Shown here one piece after another: positions 40,682 through 64,000 of a DNA stretch of 64,000 nucleotides. Position numbers and translations under genes: made by a program. Position 1 is the first letter of the stretch. Every line of letters begins with the position of its first letter. The notes under the pieces were generated by a model. That model was not told the origin of the DNA. It worked only from the letters and a program-made list of their open reading frames with translations, and searched no databases. Where the stretch lies: assembly GCA_017448905.1 (NCBI GenBank), contig JAFSKP010000060.1:15867-79866 (forward strand). The letters are read 5' to 3'. Source of the DNA: Bacteroidales bacterium. Lineage in GTDB: Bacteria; Bacteroidota; Bacteroidia; Bacteroidales; P3.

Positions 40682-40698
40682 TGTGTCAAAATGACGCA
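40682..40698. promoter_or_regulatory. Near-palindrome TGTGTCAAAATGACGCA (same motif as at 55.5-55.7 kb)
   Basis: One mismatch relative to TGCGTCAAAATGACGCA. Confidence 0.35.
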
Positions 40699-41127: not shown

Positions 41128-41373
41128 ATGACAGAGAAAGACGATAACAAGAAAGTGACTTTCAAGACTTTTGAGAACGAACATATCAAGGTGTTCTGGA
41201 ATCCCAGAGCCTGCACCCATGCGGGCATGTGCGTGCGTGGAAACGGGAAGGTGTTCGAGGTGGGTCGCCGCCCGTGGATAGACCTCTCGCAGGCTTCCGC
41301 CGAGGAGATCGCCGCCATCATCGACCGCTGCCCGTCGAAGGCTTTGCAGTATGAGTTGAAAAATGCCAATTGA
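41128..41373 (+). CDS. Divergent 4Fe-4S mono-cluster protein (YjdI-like)
   Basis: VFWNPRACTHAGMCVRGNGKVFEVGRRPWIDL...RCPSKALQYEL. Confidence 0.65.
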   Translation: MTEKDDNKKVTFKTFENEHIKVFWNPRACTHAGMCVRGNGKVFEVGRRPWIDLSQASAEEIAAIIDRCPSKALQYELKNAN

Positions 41374-41869
41374 AAACCGGATGATACAGACACATTGCCA
41401 CGACTGCGGAACACCGCTCATAGAAAAGGAGCTTGAGGGCGAGGGTATCGTCCCCTACTGCCCCAAGTGTGAGCAGTACCGCTTTCCCATGTACAACGTG
41501 GCCGTGAGCATGATAGTCATCAACGAGGAGAACGGCCAGATTCTGCTGATAGAACAGTACGGAAGACCCAACTTCATCCTCGTGGCAGGCTATGTCAACC
41601 GTGGCGAGGAACTGGAGCACGCCGTGGGACGCGAGATAAAGGAGGAGACGGGCATGACCGTCAGCCGAATCAAGTTCAACCGCACCAGCTTCTTCGAGCC
41701 GTCAAACACGCTGATGTGCAACTTCACGGCCTTCGTGACGGATGACAGCGAAATGTCGCCAAATGGGGAGATAGACTCCTATGAGTGGTTCACGCCGGAG
41801 GAGGCAAGAAAGAATATCAGACCCAACAGCCTCGCGGAGAGGTTTCTGAACGCATATCTTGATGAATAG
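41363..41869 (+). CDS. NUDIX hydrolase with N-terminal zinc ribbon (NADH pyrophosphatase-like)
   Basis: CHDCGTPL...CPKCEQ, with Nudix box GYVNRGEELEHAVGREIKEETG. Confidence 0.8.
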   Translation: MPIENRMIQTHCHDCGTPLIEKELEGEGIVPYCPKCEQYRFPMYNVAVSMIVINEENGQILLIEQYGRPNFILVAGYVNRGEELEHAVGREIKEETGMTVSRIKFNRTSFFEPSNTLMCNFTAFVTDDSEMSPNGEIDSYEWFTPEEARKNIRPNSLAERFLNAYLDE

Positions 41870-55527: not shown

Positions 55528-55544
55528 TGCGTCAAAATGACGCA
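55528..55544. promoter_or_regulatory. 17-bp palindrome TGCGTCAAAATGACGCA (operator candidate, site 1)
   Basis: Perfect inverted repeat. Confidence 0.45.
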
Positions 55545-55652
55545 AAATTTATGTTTTGAATAGCCATGAGAGGCTATTTTTGTGTCGTAACCTAACCGAT
55601 AATGAAAAATATTTCAGTACACTTAACTTTGTGTTTCAATTTGTTGCAAATT

Positions 55653-55675
55653 TTTTGCGTCAAAATGACGCAAAA
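55653..55675. promoter_or_regulatory. 23-bp perfect palindrome TTTTGCGTCAAAATGACGCAAAA (operator candidate, site 2)
   Basis: Perfect inverted repeat 53 nt upstream of the NrtR-like start codon. Confidence 0.5.
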
Positions 55676-55701
55676 TATTTTGTCAGTTTGAAAATAAGTT
55701 G

Positions 55702-55724
55702 TATTTTTGCGTCAAAATGACACA
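55702..55724 (+). promoter_or_regulatory. -7 box TATTTTTG overlapping palindrome site 3 (TGCGTCAAAATGACACA)
   Basis: The box is at 55702-55709 and the site at 55708-55724 (one mismatch). The ATG is at 55728. Confidence 0.5.
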
Positions 55725-55727
55725 AGA

Positions 55728-56684
55728 ATGAACTCTGAAAAACATACTGACGGCTACACTTACAAATATCCCCATCCGGCGGTGACTACCGACTGCGTGG
55801 TGTTCGGTTTCGACGGCAAAGAACTCAAGGTTCTCCTCATCGAGCGCGGTCTTGATCCCTACAAAGGCATGTGGGCGTTCCCTGGCGGATTCCTTCGTAT
55901 GGACGAGACGGCAGAAGAGTGTGCCAGACGCGAACTCAGGGAGGAGACCGGCTTGGAACTTGACAAGGTGAGAGAACTCGGAAGCTTCTCCGGCGTCGAC
56001 CGTGACCCGCGCGAGCGCGTTATATCCATTGCATATTACTCTTTGGCTTGTCATTCCGATGTGAAGGGCGGCGACGACGCGGCCAAGGCCAAGTGGTGGG
56101 CTATCGACGATATTCCGCAGCTGGCTTTCGACCACGACTATATCCTCCGCAAGGCCATGAAGCGCATCCGTCAGGACATCCACTTCGAGCCGGTGGGATT
56201 CGACCTGCTGGACAAGGAGTTCACCATCTCGGAGCTGCAGCGTCTCTATGAGAGTATCCTCGGCGTGCATTTCGACCGCCGCAACTTCCTCCGCAAGATG
56301 ATACAGACCGGCGTACTTCTGGAAGTCGAGGAGGACGATATGCCCAGACCATCCTATTATGGCAAGCGGAAGGAGATGAAACGAATGGACATCGACGACC
56401 TCTTTGATGGTTCTGTTGCAGAGGCTTCCATGCCATACGTTGTTCCCAACCAGGTATGTCAACAGTTTTGTATGGAAGAATCGGATGAGGCTCCGGCCAG
56501 CGCTTCCGACCGTATTCACCGTATCCATGACCTTCTGAAAAACAATACAATAGCGGAGGAGACGTGTGAGGCTGTTGTATGTGAGTCGGAACGTCCGGCG
56601 GCACGCAAGAAGAAGCTCTACCGCTTCAATCAGGAAAAATATGACCGAATGAAGGAGGACGGCAATTTCCGTCTGGAGTTCTGA
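55728..56684 (+). CDS. NrtR-like regulator: Nudix (ADP-ribose pyrophosphatase-like) domain fused to winged-helix DNA-binding domain, with acidic C-terminal extension
   Basis: Nudix box GGFLRMDETAEECARRELREETG. The wHTH block is LLDKEFTISELQRLYESILGVHFDRRNFLRKMIQTGVL. Confidence 0.8.
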   Translation: MNSEKHTDGYTYKYPHPAVTTDCVVFGFDGKELKVLLIERGLDPYKGMWAFPGGFLRMDETAEECARRELREETGLELDKVRELGSFSGVDRDPRERVISIAYYSLACHSDVKGGDDAAKAKWWAIDDIPQLAFDHDYILRKAMKRIRQDIHFEPVGFDLLDKEFTISELQRLYESILGVHFDRRNFLRKMIQTGVLLEVEEDDMPRPSYYGKRKEMKRMDIDDLFDGSVAEASMPYVVPNQVCQQFCMEESDEAPASASDRIHRIHDLLKNNTIAEETCEAVVCESERPAARKKKLYRFNQEKYDRMKEDGNFRLEF

Positions 56685-56804
56685 AGAAACATAGATAAGT
56701 ATAAGTAACCAAAAATTAGAAATATAATTAAATTATTCGATAGGGCGCGACTTGTCGTGTCAGCGTAAAGAACACCCTTTTTATTAACCCAAAATTTCAC
56801 AGAT

Positions 56805-57902
56805 ATGGAAACTATCATCAGAACCAAGGTATTCAATCTCATTATTCTCGACAAGAGCGGCTCTATGTCCTCCATTGCCAAAGCAGCCATTGCCGGTTTC
56901 AACGAGACCGTCGGAGGCATCCGCTCTGCACAGAAGCAGTTCGCCGACACACAGGAGCATTATGTCAGCCTGCTTCCCTTCTGCGCCTGCTCTATGGAGT
57001 ATGTCTATGACTGTGTTCCCGTGGAGAAGGTCAAGAATCTCACATCCAAGGACTACCAGCCCTGCTGCGGAACACCGCTCTACGATGCCATGGGCAAGGG
57101 TATTAACGACCTCTACAAGAAGACCAAGGATATGGAGAACGCCACCGTTGTCGTGACCATCATCACCGACGGTATGGAGAATGCCTCCCATGAGTACAGC
57201 GGCAAGGCCATCAAAGCCCTCGTAGACAAGATGCGTGATGACCACGGTTGGAACTTCGCCTACATTGGCACCAACCAGGACGTGGAGTCCGTGGCCATCA
57301 ACCTGTCTATCACCAACTCTTTCTTCTTCGAGGACACCGAGGAGGGTATGACGAAGGCTTGGGAGCGCGAGCGCAAATCCAAACAGCGCATGTACAGCCG
57401 CCTTGACGAGGCCGCTTGCTACTGCTGTGATTCGGCGGAACCAATGTCAGCAGAGGAGCGTAAAAGACACATACATGACGTGCTTCGTAAGAATAAGAAC
57501 TATCAGGAGTCCAGCGAGTTCGCGCACCGCGTTACCCCCAACCACATCAAGGCATTGAAGCCTGGTCAGGTGTTCGTCTTTGGAAGCAACGGAATGGGTG
57601 CACATGGCGGAGGAGCCGCACTTGCCGCTGTGAAGCACTTCGGGGCTGTCATGGGACAGGCCGAGGGAATGCAGGGCAACAGCTACGCCATCAACTCGAT
57701 GGACGGTTTGAAGGTGCTGCAGGAGCAGGCCGAGCGCTTCATCCACTATGCCAAGGAGCATCCGGAGCGCACTTTCCTCGTCACCGCCATCGGATGCGGC
57801 ATCGCAGGTTACACGCCGGAACAGGTGGCTCCGCTGTTTGTCAAGGCTGTTGATGTTGAGAACATTTGGCTCCCGAAGTCGTTCTGGGATGAATTGTTCT
57901 AA
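56805..57902 (+). CDS. Fusion protein: N-terminal vWA domain plus C-terminal Gly-rich Rossmann-like domain (A1S_2505-type phage-associated family, from memory)
   Basis: MIDAS motifs LDKSGSM, GTPLYDA and TDGMEN. The C-terminal part is GQVFVFGSNGMGAHGGGAALAAVKHFGAVMGQAEGMQGNSYAI. Confidence 0.7.
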   Translation: METIIRTKVFNLIILDKSGSMSSIAKAAIAGFNETVGGIRSAQKQFADTQEHYVSLLPFCACSMEYVYDCVPVEKVKNLTSKDYQPCCGTPLYDAMGKGINDLYKKTKDMENATVVVTIITDGMENASHEYSGKAIKALVDKMRDDHGWNFAYIGTNQDVESVAINLSITNSFFFEDTEEGMTKAWERERKSKQRMYSRLDEAACYCCDSAEPMSAEERKRHIHDVLRKNKNYQESSEFAHRVTPNHIKALKPGQVFVFGSNGMGAHGGGAALAAVKHFGAVMGQAEGMQGNSYAINSMDGLKVLQEQAERFIHYAKEHPERTFLVTAIGCGIAGYTPEQVAPLFVKAVDVENIWLPKSFWDELF

Positions 57903-57920
57903 CTTTAATACATTATTGCT

Positions 57921-58247
57921 ATGAATCCAGACAGAGACAAGCCAGGACATTGGAACCTCCGCAAAGGCCACGTGGATGAAATCAGCGAGCAGCGTCTGAC
58001 GGAGACGATGGAGATGCTGCAACGGGTGGCCGACAATACCAACACCGACCTTGAAGACGTGATAAGCGTCTATAATGCAGCCTCCCGAAACCGTCTCACG
58101 GAAGTATTACTGGACAGCGGCGATGCCTTCGACTGGGCCGTGGATGACATCAAGGAGTGGAAGAAAGAACACGAATACACCAAAGTTATGCTCGCCGGTG
58201 ACTATAATGCCGACGAAGTCAGAGTAAAGATGATAAATGACGATTAA
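57921..58247 (+). CDS. Hypothetical acidic protein (108 aa)
   Basis: An ORF packed between neighbours on the same strand. No motif was recognised. Confidence 0.45.
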   Translation: MNPDRDKPGHWNLRKGHVDEISEQRLTETMEMLQRVADNTNTDLEDVISVYNAASRNRLTEVLLDSGDAFDWAVDDIKEWKKEHEYTKVMLAGDYNADEVRVKMINDD

Positions 58248-58259
58248 AACCAGACAATT

Positions 58260-59018
58260 ATGATAGGAGCAATTATAGGCGACATAGTAGGGTCGCGATT
58301 TGAATTTCACAACCACCGCTCGACAGAGTTCGAGTTCTTCCACCCCGACTGCACCTTCACCGATGACACGGTGATGACGGTGGCCGTGGCGGATGCCATT
58401 ATGAATGGCCGTCCTTTCGGGGAGGTGATGCACGAGTATGGCCGCAAGTACCCCAACCGTGGTTATGGCGGACGGTTCTTCAACTGGCTGCTTTCCAAAA
58501 CACCGAAGCCCTACAATTCCTTCGGCAACGGTTCGGCCATGCGTGTTTCCCCGTGTGCTTATCTTGCCAAAGGCAACCGCGAGTGGGCTCTAACGTGGGC
58601 AACAGCCTCCGCAGTCTGTACCCACAACCACCCAGAGGGTGTAAAAGGAGCGATGGCTATTACCGACTGCATCTTGTTGGCACAGCAACACGTATCAAAG
58701 GATGAGATACGAAAAATCGCCGAGGAACTATATGATTACGACATGGACTTCACTATCGACCAGATACGTCCGAGGTTCGGGTTCAACGAGACGTGCCAAA
58801 AGACTGTTCCGCAGGCCATTGAATGCTTCCTGGAGAGCCATGACTTTGAGAGTGCTATCCGCATTGCCATCTCGCTCGGAGGCGACAGCGATACAATTGC
58901 CAACATTACGGGCGGTATGGCGGAGGCTTATTACGGAGTGCCGGAGGATATGGTTGTCAAAGCCATGTCTATGTTGCCAGAAGAGATGCGGAGTGTTGTG
59001 AAGGCGATGTATGAATAA
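58260..59018 (+). CDS. ADP-ribosylglycohydrolase family protein
   Basis: GAIIGDIVGSRFEF, FTDDTVMT, GNGSAMRVSP and SLGGDSDTIA (binuclear metal-site motifs). Confidence 0.85.
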   Translation: MIGAIIGDIVGSRFEFHNHRSTEFEFFHPDCTFTDDTVMTVAVADAIMNGRPFGEVMHEYGRKYPNRGYGGRFFNWLLSKTPKPYNSFGNGSAMRVSPCAYLAKGNREWALTWATASAVCTHNHPEGVKGAMAITDCILLAQQHVSKDEIRKIAEELYDYDMDFTIDQIRPRFGFNETCQKTVPQAIECFLESHDFESAIRIAISLGGDSDTIANITGGMAEAYYGVPEDMVVKAMSMLPEEMRSVVKAMYE

Positions 59019-59081
59019 GTTGCCCGTTTGGGCAATAAAAATCGCTTTCCTGCGTTATTTCAGAGTATTAGACAATAGATT

Positions 59082-59687
59082 ATGACCACAAAAGACAAGA
59101 TACTGGAACTTCTCGACAAGACCGACCGCCAGGGTATCGATGAGGTGATGGACTGGCTGAAAGGCAGCGGCTTCTTCATGGCTCCTGCTTCCACCAACTT
59201 CCACGGCAACTACGAAGGTGGTCTGGCCGACCATTCCCTCAACGTGTACACCGCAGCCATGCGTTTGCGTTCAACGGCATTGAGTCTCAATCCAACGTTG
59301 GAGAGCGAGCTGCCGGAGGATAGTGTTACCATCGCCACCCTGCTGCACGACATCTGCAAGGCTGATGTGTACAAGGAAATCACCAAGAAGCGCCAGAACA
59401 GTTTCGGACGCTGGGAGGAATACCAGGGCTATACGGTGGATTACAGCAACTTTCCCCTTGGCCATGGCGAGAAGAGCGTCATCATTCTGCTCCGTTTGGG
59501 TTTGGACTTGACCGATGCCGAGATAGCTGCCATCCGCTGGCACATGACGGCTTGGGATTTGCCCTTCCAGAGCCGTGAGGCGTTGGGCAACATCAACGCA
59601 GCCAAAGACAAATACCCGTTGTGCGCCTTGGTTCAGTTGGCCGATGGCTTTGCCTCGTCGCTGATGGAAGACACTGTAAAAAACTAA
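59082..59687 (+). CDS. HD-domain phosphohydrolase
   Basis: GGLADHSLNV, LLHDICK, GHGEKS and IRWHM. Confidence 0.75.
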   Translation: MTTKDKILELLDKTDRQGIDEVMDWLKGSGFFMAPASTNFHGNYEGGLADHSLNVYTAAMRLRSTALSLNPTLESELPEDSVTIATLLHDICKADVYKEITKKRQNSFGRWEEYQGYTVDYSNFPLGHGEKSVIILLRLGLDLTDAEIAAIRWHMTAWDLPFQSREALGNINAAKDKYPLCALVQLADGFASSLMEDTVKN

Positions 59688-60355
59688 CAACGTAAACCAG
59701 CACAGAACCGATTTCGTGTCTGGGTGTTAGCTGGTGAGTCTTTATAGTATCTCATCAAGGCGAGTGGGTGGGTGAATGAGTTAGCGTCAAACTCCTTGTC
59801 AAGATAGTCGGCAGCATGATTCACGACAGCCTCGCTAAAAAAGGCTTCTGCCTTATCCCTAAAATCGGATGACTTCGCCAGTTTACCGAAACCGAGGTAT
59901 ATGGGGGCTTTGATACTGACTATATCGTGCTTGAAAATGGTGTCGTTAATCTCTCCGAGCATCGCAAGTTCCTTGTTCGTCTTCAAGGCTTTGCCCAAGT
60001 CCTGCTCTTTCAGATAGAACAGATTGAATATCTGGATTACTCCGTTCAGTTGCATCTTGTCCGGCACATTGTAGTACAAGGCAAACAACTCGGCCACGCA
60101 ATACATTGTCTGGTCGCCCTTGAACTCAAACCACTCCTTTCCTTCATCGCCAGGATATTCAAATGCAGCCAAATTAGCAAGCAAAGAAGAGTCTGTAATG
60201 CTGATGTCTTTCCCGTTTTTGAAGTTTGCGCTTCCTGGGTTCTTCATCACGACGGAGCCGATGATGTCCCATGAGTTTCCAAACTGGAGCAATGTGCGCC
60301 AGCGATAACCGTTCCCGCAATCGTCAATGGCCTGATAATGTGTGTAGACTTTCAT
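59684..60355 (-). CDS. DUF1643 domain protein
   Basis: IIGSVVMKNPGSA, as in DUF1643 (recalled). It is convergent with the HD gene. Confidence 0.65.
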   Translation of the reverse strand: MKVYTHYQAIDDCGNGYRWRTLLQFGNSWDIIGSVVMKNPGSANFKNGKDISITDSSLLANLAAFEYPGDEGKEWFEFKGDQTMYCVAELFALYYNVPDKMQLNGVIQIFNLFYLKEQDLGKALKTNKELAMLGEINDTIFKHDIVSIKAPIYLGFGKLAKSSDFRDKAEAFFSEAVVNHAADYLDKEFDANSFTHPLALMRYYKDSPANTQTRNRFCAGLRC

Positions 60356-60369
60356 GCCTTTTGACCGCT

Positions 60370-61398
60370 TTATCTTGAATTTCTTAATATTCCGTCGGCT
60401 GCATCACGATGTCGTTTGCGTATCGAGTTGGCGAGGAATACCGGTTCAACCACACGGATGCCTGGCCCAAACCCAAGGAACGCACGTATCAATTCCGGAT
60501 TTATGATGACGTTGATTTCAAACAACATCTCTCCATTGTCGGTTTGCTCTAAAAGGGTTTGGGAACAATGGATGGGTTTGGTAAGGAAATAAGGCGCGTC
60601 CTCTGTGGATGCCCAGAACTTTACGGTCGTTGTCTTGCTTGACAGGTCGCGAGACACGCCCACCATCTCGGAGAAATATTTCTCGGCATCGAAATTCTTT
60701 GGCACGTTGTTCGGCTCGTCAGAAAGTGTTTCAATGCTGCCTATACGGTCAAGAGCGAGAGTGAGGAGCTTTTTCGGATTGTCTTTCCGTCTTCCTACAA
60801 CGAACCATCTGTTGTTGAACTCTTTCAGCACATAGGGATAGAATACGAATGAAGAGGGCTTTATGGCTCGGAATGACTGGTATTCGTACTTTTGTGCATG
60901 GCCTCGGCGCAGGGCATCATATATCACTGGGACAAAGTTCAACCCCTTCAATCGCTCGTTGCTCTCCATCATTATCAAAGCCTTGCTGTTCGCTGTGGCA
61001 AGGTTCACCTGGTCTTCAAGTCTGCTCACCAGGTCTGCGATGCCGGCCATTGCGGGGAAGCCTACCAGTTGCTTCAACACCCCCACGGCTCCCGACAACT
61101 CGTCCAGGTCATGTTCCGTAAGCGGACTGTGCATGATACTGTAGTCAGGATCTTCGTATGTGTAGTATTTGTTATCCACCACGATGATAGGAGCGTTGTA
61201 GCCGAGACGGTCGCTGCGCATAGTCTGGATGTCGAGCTGGATGGTGCGTCGGCTGATACCCTTGCGGATGCCCTCGTATTCATACAGCGCATCGGAGCAG
61301 GCTTCGATAAGGTCGTCAAGCGTCCATTGCCGGTAGCGGTTGCAGAGGCAATGGTCTATGGTCTTGTAGCGCAGCAGCGCATTGCGGTTGACAGGCAT
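60370..61398 (-). CDS. WYL-domain transcriptional regulator (HTH-WYL-WCX architecture)
   Basis: N-terminus MPVNRNALLRYKTIDHCL...RTIQLDIQTMR, central FVFYPYVLKEFNNRWFVVG (WYL-like). A minus-strand -7 box at 61420-61427 supports the start at 61398. Confidence 0.8.
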   Translation of the reverse strand: MPVNRNALLRYKTIDHCLCNRYRQWTLDDLIEACSDALYEYEGIRKGISRRTIQLDIQTMRSDRLGYNAPIIVVDNKYYTYEDPDYSIMHSPLTEHDLDELSGAVGVLKQLVGFPAMAGIADLVSRLEDQVNLATANSKALIMMESNERLKGLNFVPVIYDALRRGHAQKYEYQSFRAIKPSSFVFYPYVLKEFNNRWFVVGRRKDNPKKLLTLALDRIGSIETLSDEPNNVPKNFDAEKYFSEMVGVSRDLSSKTTTVKFWASTEDAPYFLTKPIHCSQTLLEQTDNGEMLFEINVIINPELIRAFLGFGPGIRVVEPVFLANSIRKRHRDAADGILRNSR

Positions 61399-61419
61399 AG
61401 TGTTGTGTTTTTCGTGGTG

Positions 61420-61427
61420 CAAAGATA
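61420..61427 (-). promoter_or_regulatory. -7 box TATCTTTG (minus strand) for the WYL regulator
   Basis: The reverse complement of CAAAGATA. Confidence 0.5.
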
Positions 61428-61589
61428 CGCAATTATTCTGGAACTGGTATGATGGGTAGCCGTCAGATTGCTGCCTTTTGAAGCATTATAATGAAAAATT
61501 TTGCATTTTATCATATTGATATTCAATAGTATAAAAAATTTTTCAAAAATATTTTCAAAGTACGCAAAAAGATTGCGCACCGACTATAG

Positions 61590-61597
61590 TATCTTTG
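61590..61597 (+). promoter_or_regulatory. -7 box TATCTTTG for the Y-RNA-like array / rsr-rtcB operon
   Basis: Perfect TAnnTTTG match about 50 nt upstream of the first RNA unit. Confidence 0.55.
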
Positions 61598-61646
61598 CAC
61601 CGAGAAAACGAAAACAGAAGTTCTTTGATAGATTGACCACATGAAA

Positions 61647-61757
61647 GGTGACGGTTGCCGTAGCGGGGAGTTACTTCGTTTGCTAAACCGGCAAGGTCTG
61701 AAACCACCGTTGGATTATTCCAAAAGTCTCCCTGCGTCTGTTTCACCGTTGCCTTGT
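61647..61757 (+). ncRNA. Y-RNA-like element, unit 1
   Basis: UUGCCGUA plus hairpin GCGGGG-AGUUA-CUUCGU. UUGCCGUAGC pairs with GCUA..CGGCAA. It ends at CACCGUUGCCUUG. Boundaries are approximate. Confidence 0.45.
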
Positions 61758-61764
61758 TATAAGG

Positions 61765-62033
61765 TGGAGTTGCCGTAGTGGAGGATTACTTCGTCCCAGA
61801 GCCCGTGAGTCGAATGACTCGGATGGGCAGTTAGAAGCCTCCATGAATGTCGCACTTCACCTTTATGAATTAGGCAAGTGCTGTAGGTAAGACTTCCATC
61901 GGTCTGTAAAACCTCTTGTGTCGCGGGTTGTCGGCAGAGCCGACGCCATAGCACGATTCCCGTCGAGGCTTGTCCTCGTAGCTCAGCTGGTAGAGCAAAG
62001 TTTATTGTCTTTCCGTCCGTTGCCTTGCTTTTA
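61765..62033 (+). ncRNA. Y-RNA-like element, unit 2, with tRNA-like segment (YrlA-like)
   Basis: UUGCCGUA plus GUGGAG-GAUUA-CUUCGU, several nested hairpins, the tRNA D-arm sequence GUAGCUCAGCUGGUAGAGCA at 61978-61997, and an end at CCGUUGCCUUGCUUUU. Confidence 0.5.
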
Positions 62034-62042
62034 CAACAAACA

Positions 62043-62165
62043 GAATGCCGTAGGATACGGATACTTCGCGCCTCTTTAGGGGATGTTTTTGGCGATTCCC
62101 CGACCGTTATCTGCCTGTCGCTTCTGCTTTTCTTCAAGGTCGCCGCATACCGCAGCACCTTGGAT
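62043..62165 (+). ncRNA. Y-RNA-like element, unit 3 (most diverged)
   Basis: AUGCCGUAGGAUACGGAUACUUCG shares the motif frame. Boundaries are approximate. Confidence 0.3.
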
Positions 62166-62274
62166 AGAAACGGTTGCCGTAGTGAAGAGTTACTTCATTT
62201 GGAATCAGCAAAGTCCGTCCGACTGAAACTCGGACATCATAAGCCTCTCCACGCCCGTTGCACCGTTTTCTTTG
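62166..62274 (+). ncRNA. Y-RNA-like element, unit 4
   Basis: Closing stem AGAAACGG / CCGUUUUCU, UUGCCGUA plus GUGAAG-AGUUA-CUUCAU, and internal hairpin GUCCGA-CUGAAAC-UCGGAC. Confidence 0.45.
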
Positions 62275-62281
62275 AAAACCT

Positions 62282-63829
62282 ATGTTTAACAATATATACG
62301 TTACGAAGATGAATTACAATTCGATGCTGAAAGAAGAGAATGTCGTCCAGAACCATGAGGGAGCCAGGGCTTACGCCATGTCCCCCGAGCTGGAGCTTTA
62401 CACCGCCGTTGTGACTGCCTCGTTGAGTGACACATTCTATGAGAAGCAGGATGAGCGGGTGAACCGTATCTCGGAACTCGTGGGCAAAGTCGCCCCAGAG
62501 TTCGTGGCTCGTCTTGCCGTGTACACACGCACAGAGATGCACCTTCGTAGCATCCCTCTGTTGCTGCTGGTGGAGCTGGCCAAAGTTCATAACGGCGATG
62601 ACCTTGTCGCGCGCGCCGTGGAGAAGACCGTCCTCCGTGCCGACGAGATTATGGAACTGCTGATGTGCTACCAGTGGCGCAACCCCTCCGATGGTATCAA
62701 GAAGCTCGGCAAGCTCTCCCGTCAGATTCAGAACGGCCTACAGCGTGCGTTCAATAACTTCGACGAGTACCAGTTCGCCAAGTATGACCGCGACAACCTC
62801 GAAGTGAAACTCCGCGATGCCCTGTTCCTCGTCCATCCGAAGGCGAAGGATGAGCAGCAGCAGATGCTGTTCGACAAGATTGTGACAGGTGAGCTTGAGT
62901 CTCCCTACACCTGGGAGACACAGCTCTCTGCGCTCGGCCAGCAGCAGTTTGAATCGGAGGAGGCGAAGCAGAAGGCCATACGTGAGAAGTGGGAGGAACT
63001 TATCGACAGCGGCAAGCTGGGCTATATGGCCCTGATGCGCAACCTCCGCAACATGCTCCAGGCCGGTGTCTCATTGTCGCAGATGCTTAACGTGGCGGCT
63101 CGTCTCTCAAATCCGATGCAGGTCGAGTCATCCAAGCAGCTGCCGTTCCGTTACCTTTCTGCATACCGAGAGATAGAGAATGTGACCTCCGTGCATACCT
63201 CGATGCTGATGAGCGCGTTGGAGTCCGCTGTCAAGTGTTCCGCCGCCAATATCGACGGATTCGACGAGAACACCCGCGTGCTGATTGCATCCGACGTGAG
63301 CGGCTCGATGCACCACTCCGTGAGCCAGAGGAGTTCCGTGCAGTTCTATGACATCGGCCTTTTGCTGTCGATGCTCTTCAAGAGCCGCTGCAAACAGGTG
63401 GTGTCGGGTATCTTCGGCGATGTCTGGAAGGTGGTAAATGTCCCTGCCGACAATATACTGATGGCCACCCGTCAGATGGATAGGCTTTGCAACTCCGTCG
63501 GATATGGCACCAATGCCTTCGAGGTATTCGACTGGTTGATAGTAAATAATGTGGTTGTTGACAAAGTGATGATGTTCACCGACATGCAGATGTGGAACAA
63601 CACCGGCGACAACCGAAATATTGAAAAAATGTGGGGGAAATACAAGAAGAAGTCTCCAGGAGCAAAACTGTACTTGTTCGACCTTGCGGGCTACGGCCAG
63701 GCTCCCTTGCGGCTGGTTAAGCCGGACATCTATCTGGTTGCGGGATGGAGCGACCGCATCTTTGAGATACTCTCTGCTGTTGACAGGGGCGAGGACGCTC
63801 TGGATGTTATTAACAAGATTGAAGTTTAG
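62282..63829 (+). CDS. rsr: Ro60 ortholog Rsr (TROVE domain plus C-terminal vWA)
   Basis: NHEGARAY and TROVE HEAT-like repeats, with C-terminal MIDAS ASDVSGSM. The alternative start at 62309 (MNYNSML) fits homolog N-termini better. Confidence 0.88.
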   Translation: MFNNIYVTKMNYNSMLKEENVVQNHEGARAYAMSPELELYTAVVTASLSDTFYEKQDERVNRISELVGKVAPEFVARLAVYTRTEMHLRSIPLLLLVELAKVHNGDDLVARAVEKTVLRADEIMELLMCYQWRNPSDGIKKLGKLSRQIQNGLQRAFNNFDEYQFAKYDRDNLEVKLRDALFLVHPKAKDEQQQMLFDKIVTGELESPYTWETQLSALGQQQFESEEAKQKAIREKWEELIDSGKLGYMALMRNLRNMLQAGVSLSQMLNVAARLSNPMQVESSKQLPFRYLSAYREIENVTSVHTSMLMSALESAVKCSAANIDGFDENTRVLIASDVSGSMHHSVSQRSSVQFYDIGLLLSMLFKSRCKQVVSGIFGDVWKVVNVPADNILMATRQMDRLCNSVGYGTNAFEVFDWLIVNNVVVDKVMMFTDMQMWNNTGDNRNIEKMWGKYKKKSPGAKLYLFDLAGYGQAPLRLVKPDIYLVAGWSDRIFEILSAVDRGEDALDVINKIEV

Positions 63830-63835
63830 CAGATT

Positions 63836-64000
63836 ATGGAAAAAGTAATAAGAATAGGCGATTCGGTGGTCAAGATGTGGCTCACCGAAGTCGAGGAATC
63901 GGCACGCGAGCAGGTGGAGAACCTTGCCTCGCTGCCTTTCGTATATCATCATATTGCGCTCATGCCCGACTGTCATGCCGGAATGGGAATGCCTATCGGC
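63836..64000 (+). CDS. rtcB: RNA ligase RtcB (N-terminal 55 codons; continues beyond the window)
   Basis: My own translation is MEKVIRIGDSVVKMWLTEVEESAREQVENLASLPFVYHHIALMPDCHAGMGMPIG. It contains the hallmark MPDxHxGxG metal-binding motif. Confidence 0.88.
   Translation, partial: MEKVIRIGDSVVKMWLTEVEESAREQVENLASLPFVYHHIALMPDCHAGMGMPIG

Follow-up and report, generated by a model that had tools for sequence, protein, structure and literature searches.

We examined a 64,000-nucleotide stretch of DNA (hereafter the window) from a Bacteroidales bacterium (GTDB P3; assembly GCA_017448905.1, contig JAFSKP010000060.1, positions 15,867–79,866 of the forward strand), in which a cluster of genes related to ADP-ribose lies directly beside an RNA-repair operon. 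The region analysed runs from position 55528 to the window end, and the operon was partly followed past that end on identical metagenome contigs (L001–L010). The region divides into two modules. Module A (55528–59687, plus strand) comprises an NrtR-like Nudix–winged helix-turn-helix (wHTH) regulator, a fusion of a vWA domain with a predicted macro domain, an acidic 108-residue protein, an ADP-ribosylglycohydrolase (ARH) and an HD-domain phosphohydrolase. Module B (from 59684 to beyond the window end) comprises a WYL regulator and a gene for a 223-residue protein and, in divergent orientation to these, five Y-RNA-like genes followed by rsr, rtcB and rlaP. The closest genomes are those of uncultured rumen and gut Bacteroidales. 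An earlier note, made from the sequence, had read the whole region as one functionally coupled island. Its gene placement held, with the open reading frames (ORFs) of the window's ORF listing at the positions it gave, and domain and fold searches bore out its labels for the Nudix–wHTH protein with an intact Nudix box, the vWA half of the fusion, the ARH with its metal motifs, and the HD, WYL, Rsr and RtcB genes. The coupling itself fared less well, and we describe the two halves separately before weighing how they relate.

The second gene of module A (56805–57902, plus strand) encodes a protein of 365 residues. Its N-terminal half is a vWA domain with a DxSxS MIDAS motif (DKSGS) and finds TRAP, TEM8, the Ku80 vWA domain and Rpn10 in Foldseek searches of the PDB. 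The C-terminal ~110 residues match the NCBIfam family A1S_2505 (‘phage non-structural protein’; 1.6e-39). Pfam returned no match for the protein, the macro part having A1S_2505 and a weak TIGR02452 (PARG-like) match as its only families, and a profile of the fusion run against PDB sequences gave nothing meaningful. Because a model of the whole protein was mediocre (pLDDT 68.8) and led Foldseek exclusively to vWA matches, we modelled the C-terminal domain alone, from an alignment of 24 diverse family members. The resulting model was confident (pLDDT 93.7, pTM 0.89), and its top 50 PDB matches were all macro domains, with probabilities mostly of 0.8–1.0 and TM-scores up to 0.67 (best match 3q6z, E 4.5e-3, TM 0.66). 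These matches include PARP14 macro 1 with ADP-ribose, Af1521, MacroD1/2, TARG1, YmdB and DarG. Two glycine-rich motifs, N..G.HGGGAA and IGCGIAG, appear from reading of the sequence to lie at the positions of the ADP-ribose-binding loops of macro domains. We conclude that the C-terminal domain, a member of the A1S_2505 family, has a compact macro fold as modelled. The description of this protein in the earlier note, as vWA joined to a glycine-rich Rossmann-like half, stands for the vWA half by both fold and MIDAS motif and gives way to a macro domain in the other; a generic glycine-rich Rossmann identity is ruled out by the top 50 PDB matches. The ADP-ribose theme of the left half is stronger for this result, since a formerly unplaced domain is now read as a macro domain. 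The fusion protein is predicted to be a reader or hydrolase for ADP-ribosylated targets; a published function for A1S_2505 was not found in the literature searched.

Relatives of the fusion are numerous, with more than 5600 full-length members, and the pair formed by the NrtR-like and vWA-macro genes gave 558 confirmed matches in species-representative genomes, from rumen Bacteroidales. Members of the A1S_2505 family are mostly stand-alone proteins of ~130 residues, and a few (P0264, P0347) are fused to an ARH domain in one polypeptide, which lends independent support to a functional link between macro and ARH domains. On viral contigs we found a separate macro or vWA part and never the fusion, and an ARH gene lay near the anchor in 0/80 viral loci. 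These two results rule out a phage-borne module A, and the 365-residue protein is a cellular vWA-macro fusion.

The first gene of module A (55728–56684, plus strand; 318 residues from the ATG) encodes the NrtR-like regulator, which combines a Nudix domain (PF00293, 5e-24) with a winged helix (PF21906, 1.7e-16), retains an intact Nudix box (GFLRMDETAEECARRELREETGL) and carries a C-terminal extension of roughly 110 residues. An alternative TTG start lies at 55707; gene callers on the identical metagenome contigs take the ATG. Inspection of the DNA in front of this gene revealed three perfect or near-perfect copies of a 17-bp palindrome, TGCGTCAAAATGACGCA, on the plus strand (55528–55544, 55656–55672 and 55708–55724), the third of which overlaps a TAnnTTTG-like −7 box immediately 5' of the ATG at 55728. 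The palindrome has seven matches in the window against 0.18 expected, and none near the WYL gene or rsr. A related palindrome, (T/C)GTCAAAATGAC(A/G), is conserved in front of the NrtR gene in L016, L017, L019 and L021, the closest relatives, and GTCA-N3-TGAC is not conserved upstream of NrtR genes beyond those four; operator sequences therefore seem to diverge fast. Judged by sequence, the palindromes are candidate operators of the NrtR-like repressor. A fourth copy with one mismatch (TGTGTCAAAATGACGCA; 40682–40698) lies 15 kb upstream of the region, preceding unassigned ORFs, and a gene for a stand-alone Nudix hydrolase (41363–41869) is found ~680 bp past it. The gene cluster behind this copy may be a further member of the regulon.

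The ARH (58260–59018, plus strand) belongs to the DraG-like ARH/ARG family (PF03747, 5.3e-36; phrog_6572, 5e-65) and has its metal motifs TDDT and GGDSDT in place. Its best NCBIfam match is DraG-like, accompanied by a weak match to the Tri1 ADP-ribosylarginine hydrolase (1.8e-8), both far under their cut-offs. The HD phosphohydrolase (59082–59687, plus strand; PF01966, 1.3e-7; phrog_28876, 1.6e-39) is the last gene of the module, and homologues of 88–91% identity are present in L019 and L022. The 108-residue protein (57921–58247, plus strand; isoelectric point 4.58) has no significant family and is an occasional companion between the vWA-macro and ARH genes, with a 59% identical homologue in L013. 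That locus (L013:11101–13032) holds a related cassette, with a vWA-macro protein 79% identical to ours and two different ARH genes split by the 108-residue homologue; with DnaB, amidoligase, SprT-like and Fic genes next to it, its surroundings resemble a mobile element. Neither an ADP-ribosyltransferase nor a sirtuin (SIR2) was present among the Pfam-annotated genes within 10 kb on either side on the identical contigs, a survey that covers Pfam-detectable enzymes and to which the 108- and 223-residue proteins, being unassigned, do not contribute.

In module B, the Rsr protein (bacterial Ro60; 62282–63829, plus strand) has the TROVE ring and vWA architecture (PF05731, 6.7e-28; PF25045, 5.9e-6; phrog_850, 2e-58) and 4612 relatives. 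Against the NCBIfam Rsr equivalog it scores 35.8 and does not reach the cut-off of 900. The 5' end of rtcB (RNA 3'-phosphate ligase; ~63841–64000, plus strand; translation MEKVIRIGD...HAGMGMPIG) closes the window, and the identical contigs continue with the remainder of RtcB (PF01139), RlaP (PF10127), a 66-residue ORF, a Kinase-PolyVal protein (PF18762) and a PLDc_2 protein (PF13091). The RNA-repair reading that the earlier note had given this half is correct: Rsr, Y RNAs, RtcB and RlaP occur together, with the WYL gene divergent from them.

Five Y-RNA-like units, all on the plus strand and 13–640 nt upstream of rsr, lie in the 860 nt that separate the WYL gene from rsr. The first (61645–61756) combines a terminal stem of its 5' and 3' ends with the motif GCCGUAG-N7-UUACUUC and folds with a minimum free energy of −42.1 kcal/mol (z −3.38); the second (61761–61863) has a long terminal stem in the fold of 61760–62030. 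The third (~61872–62027) is of YrlA type, with a tRNA-like module (GUAGCUCAGCUGGUAGAGC), and is the only unit to match RF02553 (YrlA; 61896–62026, 33.5 bits, E 3.2e-5, under the gathering score of 69). The fourth (62041–62127) was recognized by motif and fold, and many Rsr loci have its orthologous motif, GCCGTAGGAnGACGGATACTTC. The fifth (62167–62269), nearest to rsr, has a conserved stem. The 5' motif is found in four units and is degenerate in the third, and in the folds of the units the 5' end pairs with the 3' end. In an alignment of 31 sequences of the rsr-proximal unit, the stem consists of two helices separated by an internal loop, the terminal one carrying a bulged U; 10 of the 14 stem pairs show compensatory changes and almost none is broken.

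We then compared this array with 80 metagenome loci anchored on Rsr homologues of 56–78% identity. Arrays of the motif lie beside rsr in nearly all of them (a loose pattern matched in 79), in one to eight copies, always on the rsr strand and directly upstream or downstream of the gene; control loci gave scattered degenerate matches alone. The array that the earlier note had recognized is real, on the combined strength of the YrlA match (below the gathering score), the repeated motif, the rsr-linked arrays elsewhere and the covarying stem. Some rumen Bacteroidales have seven or eight tandem units. The arrays lie upstream of rsr in L101, L108, L112, L113 and L117, and downstream of it in other clades (L129, L138, L141, L164–L171). 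Studied bacteria reportedly have one to four Y RNAs, and arrays of seven or eight units are much longer. Published bacterial Y RNAs are encoded on the rsr strand within 4 kb of rsr, carry a GNCGAAN0-1G motif and include one tRNA-like unit (PMC4201824). The five units fit this description in sequence terms, GCCGUAG being a one-base variant of that Ro-binding motif and a putative Rsr-binding site.

The WYL-WCX regulator (60370–61422, minus strand; PF13280, PF25583; PADLOC WYL model, 2.3e-22) is divergent from the Y-RNA/rsr operon, and a WYL homologue lies near rsr in 33/80 Rsr loci. The control region between them (61401–61616, serving both strands), located by a repeat search, is bounded by a 28-nt inverted repeat that is 82% complementary (arms 61401–61428 and 61589–61616). 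Each arm carries GTATCTTTGCAC, with a Bacteroidota-type TAnnTTTG −7 box, one per strand. This 12-mer is a common promoter-like word, with six matches in the window against 0.33 expected. The region looks like two divergent promoters. The similarity of the inverted repeat extends past the promoter word, and it could contain a WYL operator.

The second gene of the WYL operon (59684–60355, minus strand) encodes the 223-residue protein, and its end overlaps that of the HD gene convergently by 4 bp. It has remote DUF1643-like motifs (MxNPG, IQIFNLFY, YLGFG, HP) and no Pfam match even at E≤10. Only five of 25 relatives touch DUF1643 (PF07799), all sub-threshold, with a best E of 0.0012. The label ‘DUF1643’ in the earlier note is thus too strong, as the window protein does not reach the gathering score and the resemblance stays at the level of motifs. 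A profile of the protein returned nothing meaningful from PDB sequences, and no homologue was present in 160 comparison loci (the 80 Rsr loci and 80 vWA-macro loci described below). Homologues elsewhere come in a short form of ~220 residues and a long form of ~355 residues with an extra C-terminal domain (P0144, P0193, P0235), and in varied contexts, adjoining a WYL gene in L096 (8001–9974) and radical-SAM and HIRAN genes in L099 (8001–11053). WYL, radical-SAM and HIRAN partners are also those reported for the unrelated-looking ARPP domain. We rejected as unsupported an assignment of the 223-residue protein to ARPP (Iyer et al.), considered because its homologues have WYL and HIRAN neighbours; the protein has no invariant Cys or Gln. 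The statement that every gene of the region relates to nucleotide, ADP-ribose or RNA-end chemistry is not borne out, because of the 108- and 223-residue proteins, which have no assignable family.

Upstream of the modules (window ~46.8–54.1 kb; L001:1428–7288) lie HipB–HipA, two AAA_14/DUF4143 ATPases and a C-terminal fragment of a terminase large subunit, and past the window end (L001:18187–21098) lie RlaP, the Kinase-PolyVal domain protein and the PLD-like nuclease. With conflict-type genes on both sides, the surroundings look like a defence island. PADLOC recognized no known defence system in module A, its sole matches being a weak PDC-S07 Nudix model and generic WYL models. A tRNA scan of the window found none, and Rfam at gathering thresholds gave no match anywhere in the window; the YrlA match came from a permissive search alone.

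We next considered whether the two modules belong together, using for module A a set of 80 loci anchored on vWA-macro homologues of 42–80% identity, each from another species, in which at least 5 kb of flank was available downstream in 56/80 and upstream in 58/80. The neighbour counts fall apart into two groups. Around the vWA-macro gene, the NrtR-like gene adjoins in 66 species and ARH in 37, and the HD gene, the 108-residue protein and a WYL gene occur in four, four and one, respectively; Rsr, RtcB, RlaP and the 223-residue gene occur in the flanks of none (0/80). Around Rsr, the corresponding numbers are 35 of 80 for RtcB, 33 for WYL, seven for ARH, four for RlaP, two each for vWA-macro and HD, one for NrtR and zero for the 223-residue gene. 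L019 and L022, the nearest loci with the same five-gene operon, have no RNA-repair cluster alongside (8 kb of downstream sequence being available in L022), and in L011, L014 and L015 the module A cassette sits among ordinary housekeeping genes. In the Bacteroidales, then, the core of module A is the NrtR-like regulator with the vWA-macro protein, and ARH, HD and the 108-residue protein are optional.

Each half also has a regulator and a promoter of its own. The stretch from the WYL gene to rsr lacks the NrtR palindrome, and nothing that we found in the sequence points to co-regulation of the halves. An operator shared by both was considered and rejected: the palindrome is missing near WYL and rsr, and the 12-mer of the inverted repeat is a generic promoter word. 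On these neighbour counts we regard the halves as separable modules, each with its own regulator. The claim of one functionally coupled island does not survive this comparison, given the 0/80 vWA-macro genes with rsr or rtcB nearby, the lack of RNA repair beside the operons of L019 and L022, and the separate regulators. The co-occurrence statistics that the earlier note had proposed came out divided, as module A genes were without rsr or rtcB in 80 loci but ARH does touch some Rsr loci. Separability is the outcome it had named as speaking against its own proposal, though the refutation is incomplete in view of L145 and the other contacts described below. The data do not support one obligate island; RNA repair and the removal of ADP-ribose may be linked facultatively.

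The results above show the identity of the domains and folds, the integrity of the motifs, the order of the genes with their conservation statistics, and covariation in the RNA. From them we infer the ligands, operators and substrates of each module, and any cross-talk between the modules, as follows. Module A, going by its domains and by a published prediction for similar systems (Iyer et al. 2022), would undo ADP-ribosylation imposed by foreign enzymes. Bound to the palindromes, the NrtR-like repressor would keep its own promoter shut, to be released once ADP-ribose or a compound closely derived from it builds up. The vWA-macro protein would capture ADP-ribosylated targets, its vWA domain and MIDAS acting as the peptide-binding part and its macro domain reading or hydrolysing the ADP-ribose. 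ARH would cut ADP-ribose off side chains, and the HD phosphohydrolase, possibly together with the regulator's intact Nudix site, would degrade the released product. In module B, by analogy with other WYL and CARF regulators, the WYL protein would sense damaged nucleic acid and then permit transcription of the five Y-RNA-like RNAs, Rsr, RtcB and RlaP. Rsr/Y-RNA particles would handle damaged structured RNA, RtcB would reseal 3'-phosphate or 2',3'-cyclic-phosphate and 5'-OH ends, and RlaP would modify RNA ends.

We believe that the region is probably best explained as two autonomous, separately regulated conflict or stress modules placed back to back. Most likely they came to be adjacent as related conflict modules accumulated, and they may be linked in function facultatively. 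Several observations weigh against this reading or parts of it. The roles of all components rest on sequence and predicted structure. The macro assignment in particular comes from a predicted structure, with a modest Foldseek E-value for its best match and no Pfam Macro match; the NrtR-like regulator scores 120.6 bits against the NCBIfam NtrR equivalog (NF050029), far below the cut-off of 400; and the explanation does not account for the 108- and 223-residue proteins. More directly, the two modules lie side by side again in L145, at 45–61% protein identity and in a different gene order (contiguously NrtR on the minus strand, vWA-macro, a 157-residue ORF, ARH, DUF1810, WYL on the minus strand, RtcB, Y-like motifs and Rsr). 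The order in L128 is HD, a HAD-ARH fusion, a 266-residue ORF, WYL (minus strand), RtcB and Rsr. In L166 (127–4167) a Prs-like (ribose-phosphate-pyrophosphokinase-like) gene is followed by ARH, a 94-residue ORF and WYL on one strand, opposite RtcB. An RtcB paralogue is followed directly by ARH in L160 (18626–21170) and L152 (19236–21515). In L143 (8192–10016) a microbial-PARG-HD fusion of 496 residues and a 117-residue ORF lie directly upstream of rsr (10031) on the same strand, and the fusion, as its sequence reads, is apparently an ADP-ribose hydrolase inside an rsr operon. The composite of the two modules is rare but recurrent, and pure coincidence is an uncomfortable explanation because L145 and these five other loci repeat the contact. 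ARH genes are also denser in Rsr loci (7 per 851 kb) than in control flanks taken from the other locus set at >3.5 kb from the anchor (1 per 698 kb), an enrichment that is suggestive at a one-sided p of ~0.06 (conditional binomial, loci not fully independent).

These contacts are the ground for regarding the region as a facultatively coupled system, in which ARH, macro/PARG and HD/HAD proteins are accessory end-cleaning enzymes for WYL-regulated RtcB–Rsr–Y RNA repair. Their task would be to free RNA or translation factors of ADP-ribose attached by toxin or phage transferases, so that RtcB and Rsr can finish the repair, which makes the coupling of the earlier note optional. In other systems it is established chemistry that RNA is ADP-ribosylated and that macro and ARH enzymes remove the modification. 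The contact is recurrent and architecturally diverse across the six loci, and the ARH density is ~6-fold that of the control flanks. Of 58 ORFs beyond the WYL gene, drawn from roughly 20 distinct loci, four belong to ADP_ribosyl_GH, more than to any other Pfam family, and single SIR2, NAPRTase, Nudix, DUF1810 and UDG proteins, as well as the Prs-like gene, are found there too. WYL and Nudix sensors are moreover described as interchangeable in ARG systems (PMC9503650). Even so, rsr or rtcB is near none of the 80 vWA-macro genes, ~90% of Rsr loci have no ARH in the available flanks, the enrichment is not significant, and the regulators are separate with no shared operator. Conflict genes also cluster whatever their function, and HipBA, AAA_14/DUF4143 ATPases and PLD genes flank this very region. 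On balance we consider facultative coupling possible but rather unlikely. Somewhat more doubtful still is its general form, in which ADP-ribose removers (ARH and A1S_2505- or PARG-type macro proteins, with HD or HAD) are recurrent accessories of WYL-regulated RtcB–Rsr–Y RNA loci, with de-ADP-ribosylation preceding end healing and ligation of RNA or the translation machinery.

Two further explanations concern module A by itself. It could serve housekeeping NAD and ADP-ribose metabolism, clearing O-acetyl-ADP-ribose, ADP-ribose-1''-phosphate or spontaneous glycation by free ADP-ribose, with no meaning to the neighbouring RNA repair. The wide spread of the NrtR and vWA-macro pair in rumen Bacteroidales (the 558 confirmed matches) would suit such a role, as would its frequent position amid metabolic genes (GH97, Na/H exchangers, GH3, PIF1), the intact Nudix box, which suggests a retained ADP-ribose pyrophosphatase activity, and the fourth palindrome upstream of a cluster with a stand-alone Nudix hydrolase. 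The fusion of a vWA/MIDAS protein-binding domain to the macro domain, by contrast, points to macromolecular rather than soluble substrates, the variable accessories (ARH in 37/80, HD in 4/80, a second VWA in L011, two ARHs in L013) are typical of conflict systems, and the operon has no NAD biosynthesis genes. We find this explanation improbable. Alternatively, the modifying enzymes could come from other bacteria rather than phages, with a Tri1-like ARH undoing type VI Tre1-type toxins and module A acquired as an interbacterial-defence cluster. Type VI secretion systems and orphan immunity genes abound in Bacteroidales, the neighbourhood has no cognate transferase, and the ARH does have its weak Tri1 match (1.8e-8, far under the cut-off); its best NCBIfam match, however, is DraG-like and likewise far under cut-off, and the flanks have no hallmarks of type VI or immunity islands. 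This version, which departs from the two-module explanation solely in the source of the modifying enzyme, we hold to be very improbable.

The most useful outcomes of the analysis are the macro assignment of A1S_2505, a Bacteroidales de-ADP-ribosylation variant with candidate operators, and a lead on ADP-ribose genes near WYL–RtcB–Rsr. The A1S_2505 family, which is common in phages, gains a fold assignment and with it a likely ligand. Until now, host systems for undoing foreign ADP-ribosylation have existed as predictions only, and the locus offers a compact Bacteroidales version with all catalytic motifs intact, made up of a regulator, candidate operators, vWA-macro, ARH and HD, in a family of >5600 full-length relatives. 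Should the contact between ADP-ribose genes and WYL–RtcB–Rsr reflect function, it would join RNA repair with the ADP-ribosylation of nucleic acids by toxins; should it not, the locus is two ordinary conflict modules in one island. The recurrent-accessory idea, if true, would amount to a new bacterial pathway of RNA de-ADP-ribosylation and repair. The literature searched, which did not take in Burroughs & Aravind 2016, yielded neither a description of such a pathway nor a paper linking RtcB or Rsr to ARH.

The earlier note knew of no described system with this composition. Taken half by half that is wrong, since the left half fits the ARG-centric systems (PMC9503650) and the right half the Rsr/Y RNA/RtcB/RlaP operons. 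The former were predicted as widespread host systems reversing viral ADP-ribosylation (Iyer et al. 2022, Viruses 14:1977, PMC9503650, section 3.8). The prediction lists an ARG that has no transferase coupled to it, a repressor of Nudix-HTH or WYL-HTH type, a phosphatase (for which HD is one option), a peptide-binding chaperone (vWA being one) and, optionally, Macro or NADAR. Because module A contains every listed part, we place it in this predicted class as a member or variant. Its ARH (PF03747, with metal motifs) has no detected coupled transferase or sirtuin, its first gene is a one-component Nudix-HTH (NrtR-like) regulator, the HD phosphatase (yet in only 4/80 related loci), vWA chaperone and accessory macro domain are all present, and the accessory genes vary between related genomes. 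Unlike the published systems, it does not have ARG as its conserved centre, the core being NrtR plus vWA-macro (66/80) with ARH in 37/80; its macro domain is of the compact A1S_2505 type and fused to vWA; and its lineage is Bacteroidales, as opposed to the actinobacteria, planctomycetes and proteobacteria named for the class. A rhodanese-phosphatase, ARPP or a restriction endonuclease or other nuclease effector was not seen in module A.

According to Iyer et al., WYL and Nudix regulators can stand in for each other as the sensor of an ARG system (PMC9503650). L094 (10001–12750) has a vWA-macro homologue of 42% identity without an NrtR neighbour, and a WYL gene, 43% identical to that of the window, lies 0.8 kb downstream on the opposite strand, an arrangement that fits such a swap. 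Compared with NrtR, the Nudix-wHTH repressor that responds to ADP-ribose and governs NAD metabolism (Rodionov et al. 2008; Huang et al. 2009), the regulator of module A shares the Nudix domain with an NrtR winged helix and palindromic candidate operators that overlap its own promoter; it differs in standing before genes for ADP-ribose removal rather than NAD synthesis, in its ~110-residue C-terminal extension and in its score (120.6 versus 400 bits). The predicted fold of the A1S_2505 domain matches those of macro domains such as MacroD, Af1521, TARG1, PARP14 macro1 and DarG at TM ~0.6–0.67. It is shorter than typical macro domains (~110 residues) and, unlike them, has no Pfam Macro match; it is predicted to bind or hydrolyse ADP-ribose.

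Module B resembles the Salmonella rsr-yrlBA-rtcBA operon (Chen et al. 2014, PMC4201824; Hughes et al. 2020, PMC7790460) in its TROVE-vWA Rsr with rtcB directly downstream. As in YrlA systems (PMC4201824), its Y-like genes lie on the same strand within 1 kb of rsr and one has a tRNA-like module, and RlaP follows rtcB as in RlaP-type operons (PMC12776372). It departs from the Salmonella operon in having a divergent WYL-WCX protein instead of the sigma54 activator RtcR, with no RtcA seen, and from known Rsr operons in the unusual length of its array, with five tandem Y-like units here and up to seven or eight in related loci. The units differ from published Y RNAs in their 5' motif (GCCGUAG versus GNCGAAN0-1G) and in a YrlA score under the Rfam gathering threshold. 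The features of an RtcB-centred repair operon are nevertheless present, with RtcB, RlaP, a scaffold ribonucleoprotein and a ligand-sensing (WYL) regulator, and we conclude that module B belongs to a known type, the Rsr/Y RNA/RtcB/RlaP operons (PMC4201824, PMC7790460, PMC12776372).

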